A stretch of DNA of 39,818 bases from sequence record ON528716; one strand, written 5' to 3'. The translations under genes and the position numbers were made by a program. The stretch comes from Shigella phage ESh2. Positions 1-6,369 of the stretch are shown here, piece by piece (position 1 is the first letter of the stretch; each line of letters opens with the position of its first letter). Below the pieces are notes generated by a model that saw only the letters and a list, made by a program, of their open reading frames with translations, was not told the origin of the DNA and ran no database searches.

Positions 1-151
1 GGGACGAAAGGTTACTATATAGATACTGAATGAATACTTATAGAGTGCATAAAGTCTGCATAGTGGTGTACCTAAAGTGACCTCTAAGAATGGTGATTAT
101 ATTGTATTAATATCACCTTAACTTAAAGACCAACATAAAGGGAGGAGACTC

Positions 152-301
152 ATGTTCCGCTTATTGTTGACCTTGTTGCGGCATAGAGTCACCTACCGAT
201 TTCTTATGGTACTTTGTGCTGCCCTTGGGTACGCATCTCTTACTGGAGACCTCAGTTCACTGGAGTCTACCGTTTGCTCTATACTCACTTGTAGTGATTA
301 G
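152..301 (+). CDS. 19.5: gene 19.5 small protein (49 aa), right-end gene expressed from phiOR
   Basis: ATG at 152 with SD gggaggag upstream; translation MFRLLLTLLRHRVTYRFLMVLCAALGYASLTGDLSSLESTVCSILTCSD matches T7 gp19.5 as recalled; below ORF-track size cutoff. Confidence 0.8.
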   Translation: MFRLLLTLLRHRVTYRFLMVLCAALGYASLTGDLSSLESTVCSILTCSD

Positions 302-359
302 GGTCTTCCTGACCGACTGATGGCTCACCGAGGGATTCAGCGGTATGATTGCATCACAC

Positions 360-480
360 CACTTCATCCCTATAGAGTCAAGTCCTAAGGTATACCCATA
401 AAGAGCCTCTAATGGTCTATCCGTAAGGTCTATACCTAAAGATAGGCCATCCTATCAGTGTCACCTAAAGAGGGTCTTAG
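360..480. repeat. short cctaaag/ccataaag-type repeats on the right-end side of the terminal repeat
   Basis: Repeated cctaagg, ccataaag, cctaaag motifs visible directly; T7 has analogous short repeats flanking the terminal redundancy. Confidence 0.5.
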
Positions 481-541
481 AGAGGGCCTAATGGGTTCCT
501 AGACGGTCCTTTAAAATATACCATAAAAATCTGAGTGACTA

Positions 542-712
542 TCTCACAGTGTACGGACCTAAAGTTCCCCCCATAGGGGTACCTAAAGCCCAGCCAATCA
601 CCTAAAGACAACCTTCGGTTGACCTTGAGGGTCCCTAAGGGTTGGGATTGACCCTTGGGTTTATCTTTGAGTTGGTCCTTTGGTGTTACCTTGAGTGTCT
701 CTTCTTGTCCCT
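542..712. repeat. terminal repeat (single collapsed copy) containing the physical genome left end / concatemer junction
   Basis: tctcacagtgtacggacctaaagttcccc... matches the first bases of the T7 left end; length about 160-170 bp inferred from T7, cannot be delimited from a single copy. Confidence 0.55.
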
Positions 713-714
713 AT

Positions 715-885
715 CTGTTACAGCCTCCTAAAGTATCCTCCTAAAGTCACCTCCTAACGTCCATCCTAAAGCCTACTCCTAAAGCCTACACCTAAAGACA
801 CCATCAAGTCAACGCCTATCTTAAAGTTTAAACATAAAGACCATACCTAAAGACACTACATAAAGACCATACCTAACGATGCCTT
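715..885. repeat. array of cctaaag-type heptamer repeats (left-end repeats)
   Basis: ctcctaaag, tcctcctaaag, acctcctaacg, atcctaaag, ctcctaaag, acacctaaag, cataaagaccatacctaaaga x2 seen directly. Confidence 0.7.
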
Positions 886-938
886 GTTGTTGGCCATAAA
901 GAGATACCTTAATCATAATCTTTAATCATTGTCTTTAT

Positions 939-961
939 TAATACGACTCACTATAAGGAGA
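939..961 (+). promoter_or_regulatory. T7 RNAP promoter phiOL
   Basis: taatacgactcactataaggaga, 23-bp T7 class promoter consensus with A at +1. Confidence 0.8.
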
Positions 962-1014
962 GGACACTTAAAGAAACTCAAAAGAGATTAATTTAAAATT
1001 TATCAAAAAGAGTA

Positions 1015-1043
1015 TTGACTTAAAGTCTAACCTATAGGATACT
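1015..1043 (+). promoter_or_regulatory. E. coli sigma70 early promoter A1
   Basis: TTGACT (1015-1020), 17-bp spacer, GATACT (1038-1043); matches T7 A1 as recalled. Confidence 0.8.
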
Positions 1044-1140
1044 ATGAGCCATCGAGAGGGACACGGCGAATAGCCATCATAATCGACACCGGGTCAAACG
1101 GTTAAGTAGACAGCCTGATAAGTCGTATGAAAAACAGGTA

Positions 1141-1170
1141 TTGACAACATGAAGTAACATGAAGTAAGAT
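1141..1170 (+). promoter_or_regulatory. E. coli sigma70 early promoter A2
   Basis: TTGACA (1141-1146), 18-bp spacer, TAAGAT (1165-1170). Confidence 0.75.
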
Positions 1171-1245
1171 ACACAGCGTCAACCACTGATACGGTGTCTT
1201 CTAGGCGACTTAAGCGCACCACGGCACATAAAGTGAAACAAACGG

Positions 1246-1274
1246 TTGACAACATGAAGTAAACACGGTACGAT
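1246..1274 (+). promoter_or_regulatory. E. coli sigma70 early promoter A3
   Basis: TTGACA (1246-1251), 17-bp spacer, TACGAT (1269-1274). Confidence 0.75.
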
Positions 1275-1396
1275 GTACCACATGAAACGACAGTGAGGCG
1301 CAACACTGAAACGCGCTAGGGTCTAACGAAACCTGACCGACATGCTCTTTAACAATCTGGTAAATAGCTCTTGAGTGTACCGTATAAAGCGAATAA

Positions 1397-1430
1397 CTCA
1401 AGGTCGCACTGAAAGCGTGGCCTTTATGAT
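1397..1430 (+). promoter_or_regulatory. RNase III processing hairpin (R0.3-like)
   Basis: ctcaaggtcgcactgaaagcgtggcctttatgat; member of conserved hairpin family. Confidence 0.6.
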
Positions 1431-1464
1431 ATTCACTTAACGAACTAACATGAGGTAACACCAA

Positions 1465-1923
1465 ATGATTTTCACTAAAGAGCCCGCTAACGTCTTCTAT
1501 GTACTGGTGTCAGCTTTCCGTTCCAACCTCGACGATGAGGTGAACATGAGTCGCCACCGCCACATGGTTAGTACTTTACGTGCCGCACCGGGTCTTTACG
1601 GCTCCGTTGAGTCAACCGATTTGACAGGATGCTATCGTGAGGCAATCGCAAGCGCACCGACTGAGGAAAAAACGATTCGTGTACGCTGCAAGGACAAAGA
1701 GCAGGCACTCAATGTTGCACGCTTAGCTTGTAATGAGTGGGAGCAAGATTGCGTACTGGTATACAAATCACAGACTCACACGGCTGGTCTGGTGTACGCT
1801 AAAGGTTTCAATGGGTATAAGGCCGAACGTCTGCTGGGTAGCTTCCAAGAAGTGCCTAAAGGCGCACCGCTTAAAGGCTGCTTCACGATTGATGAGTTCG
1901 GTCGCCGCTGGCAAGTACAGTAA
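1465..1923 (+). CDS. 0.3: S-adenosylmethionine lyase/hydrolase (T3-type SAMase), anti-restriction
   Basis: 152 aa; SD gaggt 8 nt upstream; MIFTKEPANVFYVLVSAFRSN... near-identical to T3 gp0.3 SAMase as recalled, unrelated to T7 Ocr. Confidence 0.85.
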   Translation: MIFTKEPANVFYVLVSAFRSNLDDEVNMSRHRHMVSTLRAAPGLYGSVESTDLTGCYREAIASAPTEEKTIRVRCKDKEQALNVARLACNEWEQDCVLVYKSQTHTAGLVYAKGFNGYKAERLLGSFQEVPKGAPLKGCFTIDEFGRRWQVQ

Positions 1924-1933
1924 GTGATAGGCC

Positions 1934-1965
1934 CAAGGTCGCTCAATACGAGTGGCCTTTATGAT
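1934..1965 (+). promoter_or_regulatory. RNase III processing hairpin
   Basis: ccaaggtcgctcaatacgagtggcctttatgat; second copy of the motif. Confidence 0.55.
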
Positions 1966-1995
1966 TATCATTTAACACGCTATAGGACTAACATC

Positions 1996-2196
1996 ATGAG
2001 TAAACTTCTGGCAACCTCTAAAATCAAAGGCCAATGCACTGTAACGCTGCGTGAGTACTATCACGGGTCAATGGGATGCACCTACGTTGTGCGCTACGGC
2101 AAACAGGTCACACATTGGGTAAACCCGATTTTAGCGCAAGAGGAGTATCAAGCCTGTGTGATACACCAAGCAACGTGTGCAGGTTGGAACGATTGA
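1996..2196 (+). CDS. hypothetical early protein (66 aa)
   Basis: In-frame ATG at 1996 downstream of RNase III hairpin within ORF 1924..2196; weak SD; position corresponds to T7 0.4-0.6 block. Confidence 0.4.
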   Translation: MSKLLATSKIKGQCTVTLREYYHGSMGCTYVVRYGKQVTHWVNPILAQEEYQACVIHQATCAGWND

Positions 2197-2226
2197 CAAC
2201 AGCCTTCAAGTCTACCAAGTGGTAAA

Positions 2227-2260
2227 CTCAAGGTCGCTCCATGCGAGTGGCCTTCATGAT
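2227..2260 (+). promoter_or_regulatory. RNase III processing hairpin
   Basis: ctcaaggtcgctccatgcgagtggccttcatgat; third tandem copy. Confidence 0.55.
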
Positions 2261-2282
2261 TATCACTTTACGTATGGGAGTA

Positions 2283-2417
2283 ATGTATATGTTTACTATC
2301 GGTCTGCTCACCGCTCTGGGTCTAGCTGTAGGCGCATCCTTCGGGAAGTCTTTGGGTGTAGCTGTAGGTGCTTACTTGGTGGCTTGTATCATTACGGGAG
2401 CACTGCGCAAATGCTGA
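2283..2417 (+). CDS. hypothetical small hydrophobic protein (44 aa)
   Basis: SD gggag then ATG 2283; [44 protein letters not shown], predicted single TM helix; below ORF-track cutoff. Confidence 0.4.
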   Translation: MYMFTIGLLTALGLAVGASFGKSLGVAVGAYLVACIITGALRKC

Positions 2418-2548
2418 AACACTACGTTATGCCTATCCACACTTCCAATGGGGCGACCGTATGCACACCTGATGGGTTCGCAATGAAACAGCGAATCGAA
2501 CGCCTTAAGCGTGAACTGCGCATCAACCGCAAGATTAACAGAATCTAA
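2411..2548 (+). CDS. hypothetical small basic protein (45 aa)
   Basis: ATG 2411 overlapping preceding stop (ATGCTGA); [45 protein letters not shown]. Confidence 0.35.
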
Positions 2549-2567
2549 CTTTTGGAGAATACATAAA

Positions 2568-3647
2568 GTGAACATTACCGACATCATGAACGCTATCGAC
2601 ACAGTCAAAGAGCTTCCAATCTGTGAACTTGATAAGCGCCAAGGTATGCTTATCGACTTACTGGTTGAGATGGTCAACAGCGAAACGTGTGATGGCGAAA
2701 TGACCGAACTAAATCAGGCACTTGAGTATCAAGATTGGTGGACTACCTTGAAGTGTCTCACGACTGACGCAGGTTTTAAGATGCTCGGTAATGGTCACTT
2801 CTCGGCTGCTTATAGTCACCCGCTGCTGCCTAATAGAGTGATTAAGGTGGGCTTTAAGAAAGAGGACTCAGGCGCTGCGTATACCGCATTCTGTCGCATG
2901 TATCAGGGTCGCGCTGGTATCCCTAACGTCTACGATGTACAGCGCCACGCTGGCTGCTATACGGTTGTACTCGATGCGCTGAACGATTGCGACCGTTACG
3001 ATAACGATGAGCATTATAAGTATGCTGAGATTGCAAGTGACATCATTGACTACAAATCAGATGAGCACGATGGGTTAACTGGATGGGATGGCGAGTTCGT
3101 CGAGACTTGCAAGTTAATCCGCAAGTTCTTTGAGGGCATCGCTTCGTTCGACATGCACAGCGGGAACATTATGTTCAGCGATGATGATACACCATACATT
3201 ACCGACCCTGTATCGTTCTCGCAGAAGAAAGACGGTGGCTCATTCAGTATCGACCCTGAGGAACTCATTAAGGAAGTCGAGGAAGTCGCACGCCAGAAAG
3301 CAATCGACCGCGCTAAGGAACGTAAAGAACGTCATGTGGGTCGATTGGAGGCACGCAGATTCAAACGTCGCAACCGCAAGGCACGTAAAGCACACAAAGC
3401 TAAGAGCGAAAGAATGCTTGCTGCGTGGCGTATGGCTGAGCGCCAAGAACGACGTAACCATGAGGTAGCTGTAGATGTACTAGGTCGAACCAATAACGCC
3501 ATGCTCTGGGTTAACATGTTAGCTGGGGACTTTAAGGCACTTGAAGAACGAGTTGCAGCGCACTGGTTTAATGCTGACCGGATGGCTATCGCTAACGGTC
3601 TTCCACTCAACATCGATAAGAAACTTGATGCAATGCTAATGGGCTGA
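2568..3647 (+). CDS. 0.7: serine/threonine protein kinase / host transcription shutoff
   Basis: 359 aa from GTG at 2568 (SD ggag 8 nt upstream); near-identical to T7 gp0.7 from [11 protein letters not shown]... onward. Confidence 0.9.
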
Positions 3648-3654
3648 TAATCTT

Positions 3655-3690
3655 ATCTTACAGGTCATCTATGGGTGGCCTGAATAGATA
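3655..3690 (+). promoter_or_regulatory. RNase III processing hairpin R1 upstream of gene 1
   Basis: caggtcatctatgggtggcctg imperfect hairpin in the 0.7-1 intergenic region. Confidence 0.45.
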
Positions 3691-3717
3691 CGATTTACTA
3701 ACCGGAAGAGGCACTAA

Positions 3718-6369
3718 ATGAACACGATTAACATCGCTAAGAACGACTTCTCTGATATCGAACTGGCTGCTATCCCGTTTAATACTCTGGCTGACCATTA
3801 CGGTGAGCGTTTAGCTCGCGAACAGTTGGCCCTTGAGCATGAGTCTTACGAAATGGGTGAAGCACGATTCCGCAAGATGTTTGAGCGTCAACTTAAAGCT
3901 GGTGAGGTTGCGGACAACGCTGCCGCTAAGCCTCTCATTACTACCCTGCTCCCCAAGATGATTGCACGCATCAACGATTGGTTTGAGGAAGTGAAAGCTA
4001 AGCGAGGCAAGCGCCCGACAGCCTTCCAGTTCCTGCAAGAAATCAAGCCGGAAGCAATAGCGTATATCACCATTAAGACAACTCTGGCTTGCCTCACAAG
4101 CGTAGACAATACAACAGTTCAGGCTGTAGCAAGTGCAATCGGTCGAGCTATTGAGGACGAGGCGCGCTTTGGTCGTATCCGTGACCTTGAAGCTAAGCAC
4201 TTCAAGAAAAATGTTGAGGAGCAACTAAACAAGCGCGTAGGGCACGTCTACAAGAAAGCATTCATGCAGGTTGTCGAAGCTGATATGCTCTCTAAGGGTC
4301 TGCTAGGTGGCGAGGCGTGGTCTTCGTGGCACAAGGAGGACTCCATTCACGTAGGTGTGCGCTGCATTGAGATGCTCATTGAGTCAACCGGAATGGTCAG
4401 CTTGCATCGTCAAAACGCAGGCGTAGTCGGGCAAGACTCTGAGACTATCGAACTCGCACCGGAATACGCTGAGGCTATCGCAACCCGTGCTGGTGCACTG
4501 GCTGGTATCTCTCCGATGTTCCAACCTTGCGTAGTTCCTCCTAAGCCTTGGACTGGTATTACTGGTGGCGGCTATTGGGCTAACGGTCGCCGTCCTCTGG
4601 CACTGGTGCGCACTCACAGTAAGAAAGCACTGATGCGCTATGAAGACGTTTACATGCCTGAGGTGTACAAAGCGATTAACATTGCGCAAAACACCGCATG
4701 GAAAATCAACAAGAAAGTCCTAGCGGTCGCCAACGTAATCACCAAGTGGAAGCACTGCCCCGTAGAGGACATCCCAGCGATTGAACGTGAAGAACTCCCG
4801 ATGAAACCGGAAGACATCGACACGAATCCTGAGGCGCTCACCGCTTGGAAACGTGCTGCTGCTGCTGTGTATCGCAAGGACAAGGCTCGCAAGTCTCGCC
4901 GTATCGGCCTTGAGTTCATGCTTGAGCAAGCCAATAAGTTCGCTAACCATAAGGCCATCTGGTTCCCTTACAACATGGACTGGCGCGGTCGTGTTTACGC
5001 TGTGTCAATGTTCAACCCGCAAGGTAACGATATGACCAAGGGTCTGCTGACGCTGGCTAAAGGTAAACCAATCGGTAAAGAAGGTTACTACTGGCTGAAA
5101 ATCCACGGTGCAAACTGTGCTGGTGTCGATAAGGTTCCGTTCCCTGAGCGTATCAAGTTCATTGAGGACAACCACGAGAACATCATGGCTTGCGCTAAGT
5201 CTCCACTGGAGAACACTTGGTGGGCTGAGCAAGATTCTCCATTCTGTTTCCTAGCGTTCTGCTTTGAGTACGCTGGGGTACAGCACCACGGATTAAGTTA
5301 CAACTGCTCTCTTCCACTGGCGTTCGATGGGTCTTGCTCTGGTATTCAGCACTTCTCCGCGATGCTCCGCGATGAGGTAGGTGGTCGTGCTGTTAACCTG
5401 CTTCCTAGTGAAACCGTTCAGGACATCTACGGGATTGTCGCTAAGAAAGTCAACGAGATTCTGCAAGCTGATGTAATCAACGGGACCGACAACGAAGTAG
5501 TAACCGTGACCGATGAGAACACTGGTGAAATCTCTGAGAAAGTCAAGCTGGGTACTAAGGCGCTGGCTGGTCAATGGCTGGCTTACGGTGTTACTCGCAG
5601 TGTGACTAAGCGTTCAGTCATGACGCTGGCTTACGGGTCCAAAGAGTTCGGCTTCCGTCAACAAGTGCTGGAGGACACCATTCAGCCAGCAATTGATTCC
5701 GGTAAGGGTCTGATGTTCACGCAACCGAATCAGGCTGCTGGATACATGGCTAAACTGATTTGGGAAGCTGTGAGCGTCACGGTGGTGGCTGCGGTTGAAG
5801 CAATGAACTGGCTCAAGTCTGCTGCTAAGCTGCTGGCTGCTGAGGTCAAAGATAAGAAGACTGGAGAGATTCTTCGCAAGCGTTGCGCTGTACATTGGGT
5901 GACTCCTGATGGGTTCCCTGTGTGGCAGGAATACAAGAAGCCTGTTCAGACTCGCTTGAACCTGATTTTCCTCGGTCAGTTCCGTCTGCAACCTACCATT
6001 AACACCAACAAGGATAGCGAGATTGACGCACACAAACAGGAGTCCGGTATCGCTCCTAACTTTGTGCATAGCCAAGACGGTAGCCACCTGCGCAAGACTG
6101 TGGTGTGGGCGCATGAGAAGTACGGAATCGAATCCTTTGCACTGATTCATGACTCCTTCGGGACCATTCCGGCTGACGCTGCTAACCTGTTCAAAGCTGT
6201 TCGCGAAACTATGGTGGACACCTATGAGTCTTGTGATGTACTGGCTGACTTCTACGACCAGTTCGCTGACCAGTTGCATGAGTCTCAATTGGACAAAATG
6301 CCAGCACTTCCGTCTAAAGGTAACTTGAACCTCCAAGACATCCTTAAGTCAGACTTCGCGTTCGCGTAA
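3718..6369 (+). CDS. 1: DNA-directed RNA polymerase (single-subunit, T7 type)
   Basis: 883 aa; near-identical to T7 RNAP (MNTINIAKNDFSDIELAAIPFNTLADHYGERLAREQ...); matches the T7-type promoters in the genome. Confidence 0.99.
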   Translation: MNTINIAKNDFSDIELAAIPFNTLADHYGERLAREQLALEHESYEMGEARFRKMFERQLKAGEVADNAAAKPLITTLLPKMIARINDWFEEVKAKRGKRPTAFQFLQEIKPEAIAYITIKTTLACLTSVDNTTVQAVASAIGRAIEDEARFGRIRDLEAKHFKKNVEEQLNKRVGHVYKKAFMQVVEADMLSKGLLGGEAWSSWHKEDSIHVGVRCIEMLIESTGMVSLHRQNAGVVGQDSETIELAPEYAEAIATRAGALAGISPMFQPCVVPPKPWTGITGGGYWANGRRPLALVRTHSKKALMRYEDVYMPEVYKAINIAQNTAWKINKKVLAVANVITKWKHCPVEDIPAIEREELPMKPEDIDTNPEALTAWKRAAAAVYRKDKARKSRRIGLEFMLEQANKFANHKAIWFPYNMDWRGRVYAVSMFNPQGNDMTKGLLTLAKGKPIGKEGYYWLKIHGANCAGVDKVPFPERIKFIEDNHENIMACAKSPLENTWWAEQDSPFCFLAFCFEYAGVQHHGLSYNCSLPLAFDGSCSGIQHFSAMLRDEVGGRAVNLLPSETVQDIYGIVAKKVNEILQADVINGTDNEVVTVTDENTGEISEKVKLGTKALAGQWLAYGVTRSVTKRSVMTLAYGSKEFGFRQQVLEDTIQPAIDSGKGLMFTQPNQAAGYMAKLIWEAVSVTVVAAVEAMNWLKSAAKLLAAEVKDKKTGEILRKRCAVHWVTPDGFPVWQEYKKPVQTRLNLIFLGQFRLQPTINTNKDSEIDAHKQESGIAPNFVHSQDGSHLRKTVVWAHEKYGIESFALIHDSFGTIPADAANLFKAVRETMVDTYESCDVLADFYDQFADQLHESQLDKMPALPSKGNLNLQDILKSDFAFA

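Follow-up and report, generated by a model that had tools for sequence, protein, structure and literature searches.

Three small early open reading frames of Shigella phage ESh2 as orthologues of T7-group genes 0.45, 0.5 and 0.6

The left part of the genome of Shigella phage ESh2 (sequence record ON528716; the whole stretch analysed, 39,818 nucleotides (nt) of one strand, is called the window here) holds three short open reading frames (ORFs) between a gene for S-adenosylmethionine lyase (SAM lyase, or SAMase) and a protein kinase gene. The original prediction, made from the letters of the window, described them as small early ORFs of unknown function. Our comparison identifies them, as judged from their sequences, with genes that are already known and named in the T7 group, 0.45, 0.5 and 0.6, so that the novelty implied by the prediction is lost. 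Overall, we consider it highly likely that positions 1920-2548 comprise two T7-group early cassettes whose genes have the roles proposed below. The first cassette would consist of an R0.45 hairpin and gene 0.45, and the second of an R0.5 hairpin and genes 0.5 and 0.6, running straight into the kinase gene 0.7. The features concerned are the following.

1920-1978 (core 1922-1973), + strand: RNase III-type two-tier hairpin in the place of R0.45 of phage phiYeO3-12 (fold, covariation, annotation)
1984-1987, + strand: Shine-Dalgarno (SD) motif AGGA, 8 nt before the ATG at 1996
1996-2196, + strand: ORF of 66 amino acids (aa), gene 0.45
2215-2273 (core 2217-2268), + strand: RNase III-type hairpin in the place of T7 R0.5 (fold, collinearity, covariation)
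2276-2280, + strand: SD motif GGGAG for gene 0.5, 2 nt before the ATG at 2283 and 8 nt before the ATG at 2289
2283-2417, + strand: ORF of 44 aa, gene 0.5
2411-2548, + strand: ORF of 45 aa, gene 0.6

The coordinates, lengths and translations of the three ORFs were confirmed, and so were the flanks that the prediction had assigned to them: the gene 0.3 product matches the Pfam family S-AdoMet_lyase (PF23780; expect value (E) 2.9e-43) and is 95% identical to T3 gp0.3, and the kinase is 93% identical to T7 gp0.7 over its first 100 N-terminal residues. Alone, an ORF of such a size is uninformative, since chance produces many of them (the first 4.5 kilobases (kb) contain 69 that reach 20 aa or more), and the coding case therefore rests on comparison with relatives. 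For this purpose the kinase N-terminus and the 66-aa protein served as anchors to retrieve 29 related viral loci (a few come from the same contigs and overlap), and T7, T3, phiYeO3-12 and 13a were added from annotated records. Among 13 distinct full-length homologues of the 66-aa ORF, the ratio of nonsynonymous to synonymous change (pN/pS) was 0.00-0.17, and the variable sites were distributed 18/14/53 over codon positions 1/2/3 (p 9e-8). The corresponding values were 0.05-0.29 and 6/1/17 (p 2e-4) for 8 homologues of the 44-aa ORF, and 0.05-0.26 and 7/3/28 (p 7e-7) for 12 homologues of the 45-aa ORF. Full-length homologues of all three are ungapped and keep start and stop codons with few exceptions, and a tblastn search found the 66-, 44- and 45-aa products in 156, 85 and 217 phage records, respectively, a conservation on which the prediction had depended. 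These patterns show that the three ORFs are protein-coding genes under purifying selection, and agree with the predicted setting, the early variable region of a T7-group phage, with genuine small genes between gene 0.3 and gene 0.7. Public records label all three products 'hypothetical protein', and scans of the three proteins with Pfam, NCBIfam and PADLOC gave nothing significant. A minus-strand ORF at 2372-2677 (101 aa) was set aside, as transcription in T7-group genomes is confined to one strand and the codon-position signal agrees with the frames of the plus strand.

The 45-aa product is identical to residues 1-45 of T7 gp0.6A at 43 of 45 positions (96%) and matches PHROG 8393 (E 1e-28); its ORF is the orthologue of T7 gene 0.6A, reduced to the conserved core. 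As predicted, the product is highly basic (isoelectric point (pI) 10.96, net charge +7). The predicted ATGCTGA overlap with the 44-aa ORF was likewise read from the sequence, the ATG of gene 0.6 lying at 2411-2413 and the TGA of gene 0.5 at 2415-2417, 7 bases in all; T7 has ATGATGA at this place. The stop codon of gene 0.6 is followed after 19 nt by the GTG start of gene 0.7, an arrangement found exactly in Salmonella phage 3A_8767, and T7 0.6A also stands immediately upstream of the kinase gene. However, T7 0.6A is 8 residues longer than the window protein, which ends at residue 45, and the T7 segment of about 225 nt for the frameshifted 0.6B product is absent from the window. A stop at codon 46 is found in 8 of 12 distinct relatives, mostly as TAA and as TGA in phage NC-A, and the 0.6B extension annotated in T7 and phiYeO3-12 is a variable rather than a core feature of the gene 0.6 family. 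NC-A carries the '0.6B' part as a free-standing ORF that has an ATG of its own (1748-1990 of the locus, against 1498-1673 in T7), and T7 '0.6B' may have arisen by the joining of two genes that were at first independent.

The core of gp0.6, Y5-N39, extends to distant phages. It was found in phi92-like myoviruses (Stephanstirmvirinae), for example JLBYU50 with 62% identity (locus 1504-1650), in Aeromonas Straboviridae such as T4-like Aeh1 (locus 1438-1611; record annotation 'similar to phage T7 gene 0.6 product'), and in Dickeya and Marinomonas podoviruses. Since the core is common to these phages while their C-terminal tails differ, the 45-aa protein looks like a complete version of the conserved unit, and the module of about 35 residues has been transferred horizontally. 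In phage IME390 the gene 0.6 homologue has an in-frame stop at codon 26 (K26*; locus 1622-1756) and looks like a pseudogene; this phage was propagated on BL21.

A sequence search of the PDB with gp0.6 gave nothing. T7 Gp0.6 is reported to target MreB, with its binding site on MreB mapped, and to produce lemon-shaped cells when overproduced (PMC5624674, PMC6965359, PMC5502672, PMC9372555, citing Molshanski-Mor et al. 2014). At 96% identity it is reasonable to transfer MreB inhibition to the window protein, which would then bind and inhibit this actin-like cell-shape protein as a non-essential host-takeover function. The label 'unknown function' is thus no longer apt for gene 0.6, whereas it still holds for genes 0.5 and 0.45, which remain uncharacterised. 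The anti-defence part of the predicted setting is supported by no result here, though such a role may yet apply to gp0.45 or gp0.5.

The 66-aa product matches PHROG 6500 over positions 1-66 of 66 (E 7e-44). Salmonella phage 3A_8767 encodes an identical protein (100%); identity is 91% for the 'putative 0.45 protein' of Yersinia phage phiYeO3-12 and 67% for gp0.45 of coliphage 13a. In Citrobacter phage SH2 the gene is listed as 'gp0.45 [phiSG-JL2]', with the SD sequence ATAGGACTA..ATG as here (PMC4925675, Table 3), and the window gene has the same SD as its gene 0.45 relatives. Taken together, the comparisons identify the 66-aa ORF as the orthologue of gene 0.45 of phiYeO3-12, 13a and phiSG-JL2. 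Public calls in this phage record and in relatives start gene 0.45 at upstream codons inside the hairpin, giving 78-93 aa, and these are probably over-extensions. A 90-aa form from GTG 1924 was rejected, as it runs through the hairpin and its hairpin-encoded N-terminal extension is not conserved as protein. The protein is presumably soluble and is near-neutral (pI 8.4, net charge +2). The literature searched contained no report on the function of gp0.45, and our best guess is that it would be a small soluble protein acting by binding some host macromolecule.

A rival view is that anti-defence, and not the modification of host physiology, is the task of at least one of the three proteins, with gp0.45 as the most plausible candidate. 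Gene 0.45 always travels beside the anti-restriction gene 0.3, be it SAM lyase or Ocr: it directly follows SAM lyase here, in phiYeO3-12 and in Klebsiella przondoviruses, follows ocr/0.4 in other teseptimaviruses, and directly precedes ocr (gene 0.3) in 13a, where it lies upstream rather than downstream of that gene (604-843 of the 13a locus). Given this last placement, the cassette has moved, and its mobility and patchy presence are what would be expected of accessory counter-defence genes; the fold family of gp0.45 is, moreover, widespread among uncharacterised small phage proteins. Nevertheless, closeness to gene 0.3 means little where all the non-essential early genes are packed into 1 kb, and the literature searched gave no experimental hint in this direction. 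We therefore regard an anti-defence role as unlikely, and keep to the view of gp0.45 as a binder of some host macromolecule.

The 44-aa product matches PHROG 16572 (E 2.6e-27) and is 79% identical to T7 gp0.5 and 93-98% identical to the proteins of closer relatives. Its database homologues bear a precomputed match to PF26813.1; a literature search for PF26813 found nothing. The ORF is, by these matches, the orthologue of T7 gene 0.5, which encodes a class I protein that is likewise hydrophobic; in T7, too, the gene comes after the R0.5 hairpin and has translational coupling with gene 0.6. The C-terminal third differs from that of T7, which ends …TACIIIGIIKGALRK, and the window protein is 3 residues shorter; among relatives the window form is commoner than the T7 form.

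As for the start of gene 0.5, the end of the R0.5 hairpin lies 10-16 nt upstream of two candidate ATGs. The spacing of the SD motif favours the second of these, at 2289. Codon 2 counted from the first ATG is free to vary in relatives (Y/H/F/N), the first ATG itself is ATA in phage EG1, and Met3 is invariant, with several database gene calls starting there. On these grounds gene 0.5 probably starts at ATG 2289 and encodes 42 aa. Public calls in this phage record and in relatives begin at ATG 2241 (58 aa), inside the RNase III hairpin. This 58-aa form was rejected as almost certainly wrong, as it runs through the hairpin and its N-terminal extension is hairpin-encoded and not conserved as protein.

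The hydrophobicity predicted for the 44-aa product was borne out by a grand average of hydropathy (GRAVY) of +1.42, and the protein ends in RK. The single transmembrane helix of the prediction remains putative: residues 3-41 comprise about 39 apolar or small residues, broken only by G-K (W-E in some homologues), a length that would accommodate either a pair of short membrane segments or a single long segment set at a tilt. The protein is presumably an inner-membrane protein, and would insert into the inner membrane. The literature assigns gp0.5 a putative transmembrane helix and still treats it as uncharacterised (PMC12798971, PMC11863960).

Beyond such a location, gp0.5 might be a membrane-active oligomerising peptide (a pore, a depolariser or an exclusion factor) rather than a passive anchor, with a glycine face driving helix-helix packing. 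Glycines occur at residues 13, 17, 21, 25 and 29 (window 2319-2369), of which G13, G17 and G29 are invariant or nearly so, and this occurrence at every fourth residue may form a glycine-zipper-like packing face. The conservation is extreme for an apolar peptide of 42 aa. A V26I change in T7 gp0.5 swept in two replicate populations evolved in microgravity (PMC12798971), which implies a fitness effect. On the other side, G21 is replaced by W in several homologues, so that the zipper is not strict, the papers accessible contain no report of toxicity for gp0.5, and the protein is without homology to holins or known toxins. A membrane-active gp0.5 thus seems to us quite unlikely, and its description as a presumed inner-membrane protein is retained.

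With regard to the structure of gp0.45, a profile search of 1.84 billion representatives gave 33 proteins at E <=1e-3, mostly of 60-90 aa, one distant member lying among small ORFs on a phage contig. The family shares the signature G-Q-x-x-V-T-L … Y-x-V-x-Y-G … A-x-x-E-[YF]-x-x-C-x-x-H-x-x-x-C-A-G, in which four residues (Y34, G35, A47 and H57) are invariant and two more (C54 and C61) almost so. When 40 family members were scanned with Pfam, only scattered single weak hits came up, and a PDB sequence search with the profile gave nothing. AlphaFold2 with the family alignment modelled four antiparallel strands followed by a long helix (residues 44-61), with a predicted local distance difference test score (pLDDT) of 89.5. 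In BFVD this model matches many uncharacterised phage proteins of about 60 aa (template modelling (TM) scores 0.7-0.87), from Bordetella, Pseudomonas, Klebsiella jumbo and Ralstonia phages. The motif C-x2-H-x3-C lies on the C-terminal helix (residues 54-61, window 2155-2178). A four-ligand zinc site was considered and rejected, as the wider family does not keep C14, H23, C28 and H40 and conserves only three potential ligands; a three-ligand or intersubunit metal site is possible.

The modelled sheet of three or four strands on a helix resembles that of AP2, integrase arm-binding and PARP WGR domains, as would suit a nucleic-acid-binding regulator. However, the predicted sheet-plus-helix fold is a generic one, and equally good matches do not bind DNA (SPO1 capsid gp29.2, MmoD, YkuJ). 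The protein is also nearly neutral, and its invariant residues, which lie in a turn and on the helix, are not basic. The DNA-binding matches are a lead and not a result, and we consider a regulator of this kind very unlikely. Members of the gp0.45-type family occur in podo-, myo- and jumbo phages, and the mobility of gene 0.45 beside an anti-restriction gene would fit a counter-defence protein or a host-factor inhibitor. Only tentatively do we suggest that gp0.45 is the enterobacterial T7-group member of a widespread, uncharacterised phage family of about 60-70 aa with a new activity of one of these two kinds, possibly metal-dependent.

The two hairpins were recognised from several lines of evidence. 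The R0.45-type element has a minimum free energy (MFE) of -23.1 kcal/mol (z -4.2), and 0 of 200 shuffled sequences fold as well; the element at this place, upstream of gene 0.45, is annotated 'putative RNase III site R0.45' in phiYeO3-12, matching the window arrangement. The R0.5-type element (-22 to -23 kcal/mol) is collinear with the 0.4-0.5 intergenic sequence of T7. A further hairpin, of R0.3 type, at 1385-1443 has -16 to -18 kcal/mol, and over its 52-nt core it does not differ from the stem-loops that the T3 and phiYeO3-12 records annotate as R0.3. In an alignment of 18 distinct copies from the window and its relatives, 95.6% of the cells are paired and 4 pairs show compensatory change; 0 of 500 shuffles reached the covariation score, and slid controls pair at only 29-55%. 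A search of window positions 1-4000 against Rfam gave no match, which implies that no curated family exists for these hairpins. The prediction that each ORF follows a hairpin of its own was not upheld: there are only two between the SAM lyase and kinase genes (about 1920-1978 and 2215-2273), and the 45-aa ORF lacks one and is coupled to the 44-aa ORF. The idea that the ORFs are untranslated and their sequence is kept for RNA-level or regulatory reasons might appeal to these conserved hairpins and to the frequency of chance ORFs of such length, but it is extremely improbable, as the hairpins lie outside the ORFs and are without an Rfam match, start codons, stop codons and SD motifs are conserved, and changes cluster at third codon positions of the annotated frames, with pN/pS far below 1.

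By the T7 paradigm, host RNA polymerase starting from promoters A1-A3 (1015-1274) would make one early transcript, which host RNase III would cut at the hairpins to give a 0.45 mRNA and a 0.5-0.6-0.7 mRNA. The terminator search found none on the + strand up to position 3800. The same hairpins also mark the borders of the mosaic. Window 1244-2192 (A3, SAM lyase, R0.45 and gene 0.45) is collinear with phiYeO3-12 at 91.8%, and window 2197-3800 (R0.5 and genes 0.5, 0.6 and 0.7) with T7 at 85-90%. Window 1919-3800 is collinear with Salmonella phage 3A_8767 at 89.8%; that phage has ocr and 0.4 in place of SAM lyase, and the collinearity starts at 1919, the foot of the first hairpin. The breaks at 1919 and 2192-2217 thus place the mosaic junctions at hairpins. 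Among relatives, ocr or SAM lyase occurs in all combinations with the presence or absence of 0.4, 0.45, 0.5 and the 0.6B part, and a hairpin copy of about 50 nt stands at each cassette border; these copies are 82-96% identical, and EG1 has three. The simplest reading is that the repeated hairpins would serve both as RNA-processing signals and as short homologies for cassette swapping, an exchange that is deduced from breakpoint positions in a handful of genomes, with no statistical test.

Several points weigh against this overall interpretation. The MreB role of gp0.6 is carried over from T7, and residues 46-53 of T7 0.6A, which are absent here, may matter for it. Cutting by RNase III is likewise transferred, from established T7 biology and from the annotation of the homologous T3 and phiYeO3-12 sites. 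In addition, one relative, IME390, has the in-frame stop in gene 0.6, and laboratory T7 strains lack genes 0.4-0.6; the small early genes are dispensable, at least in laboratory hosts.

By sequence, Pfam matches and promoters, the first 4 kb of the window read as a T7-group left end. In the phage collection, the teseptimaviruses AV103, JacobBurckhardt and 3A_8767 come nearest, with about 92-93% identity. The neighbouring features are as follows.

About 941-963: phiOL promoter, T7-type
1015-1043, 1141-1170 and 1246-1274: strong sigma-70 promoters, A1/A2/A3-like
1385-1443, + strand: R0.3-type RNase III hairpin upstream of the SAM lyase gene (52-nt core, fold)
1465-1923, + strand: gene 0.3, SAMase (Pfam, T3 identity)
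2568-3647, + strand: gene 0.7, protein kinase, GTG start (T7 identity)
From 3718: single-subunit RNA polymerase gene

In the window, TCTCACAGTGTACGGACCTAAAG, the canonical left-end sequence of T7, starts near 541, and those relatives whose records open at their left end align from 542. The window thus resembles a complete, permuted genome of about 39.8 kb, in which case positions 1-540 would be right-end or terminal-repeat sequence. The kinase start at 2568 is GTG here and in 3A_8767, in a different SD context (TTGGAGAATACATAAA); it is ATG in T7 and in phages with the 0.6B segment. We also observed genome records of T7-like or rV5-like enterobacterial phages that bear the names of Gram-positive or Campylobacter hosts, for example MT350293 'Enterococcus phage EFA-2', 'Enterococcus phage heks' and 'Campylobacter phage A145'; such records are probably contaminant phages or wrong host assignments.

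For annotation, gene 0.5 is better given as 42 aa from 2289 than by the public 58-aa call or a call from the first ATG, and for the 45-aa gp0.6 the label 'hypothetical' can give way to MreB-inhibitor homologue. A conserved core of about 35 residues is marked out by the short gp0.6 together with its distant homologues, and this core is a natural minimal construct for work on MreB inhibition. The strongly conserved gp0.45 and gp0.5 are targets on which a function-first screen could inform. As a discovery the region carries little weight, since it behaves as a textbook T7 early region.

In comparison with known systems, the RNase III sites of T7 and T3 (R0.3, R0.5 and R1) have the same two-tier form, with a lower stem, an internal loop and an upper stem, and the window hairpins are 82-96% identical to the annotated T3 and phiYeO3-12 sites and to the T7 0.4-0.5 intergenic sequence. 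The 0.3-0.7 interval has one hairpin copy more here than in T7 or T3, because of the additional 0.45 cassette. After gene 0.45 the window continues with the second hairpin and T7-type genes 0.5 and 0.6, whereas phiYeO3-12 continues with T3-type 0.6A/B. The positional analogue of gp0.45 in T7 is the gene 0.4 product, an FtsZ inhibitor, which is also a small early protein encoded between gene 0.3 and R0.5 and is part of the same cytoskeleton-targeting early set; the two proteins are, however, without sequence similarity, and several relatives carry both genes, whereas the window is without gene 0.4. The region as a whole stays within the T7 paradigm.

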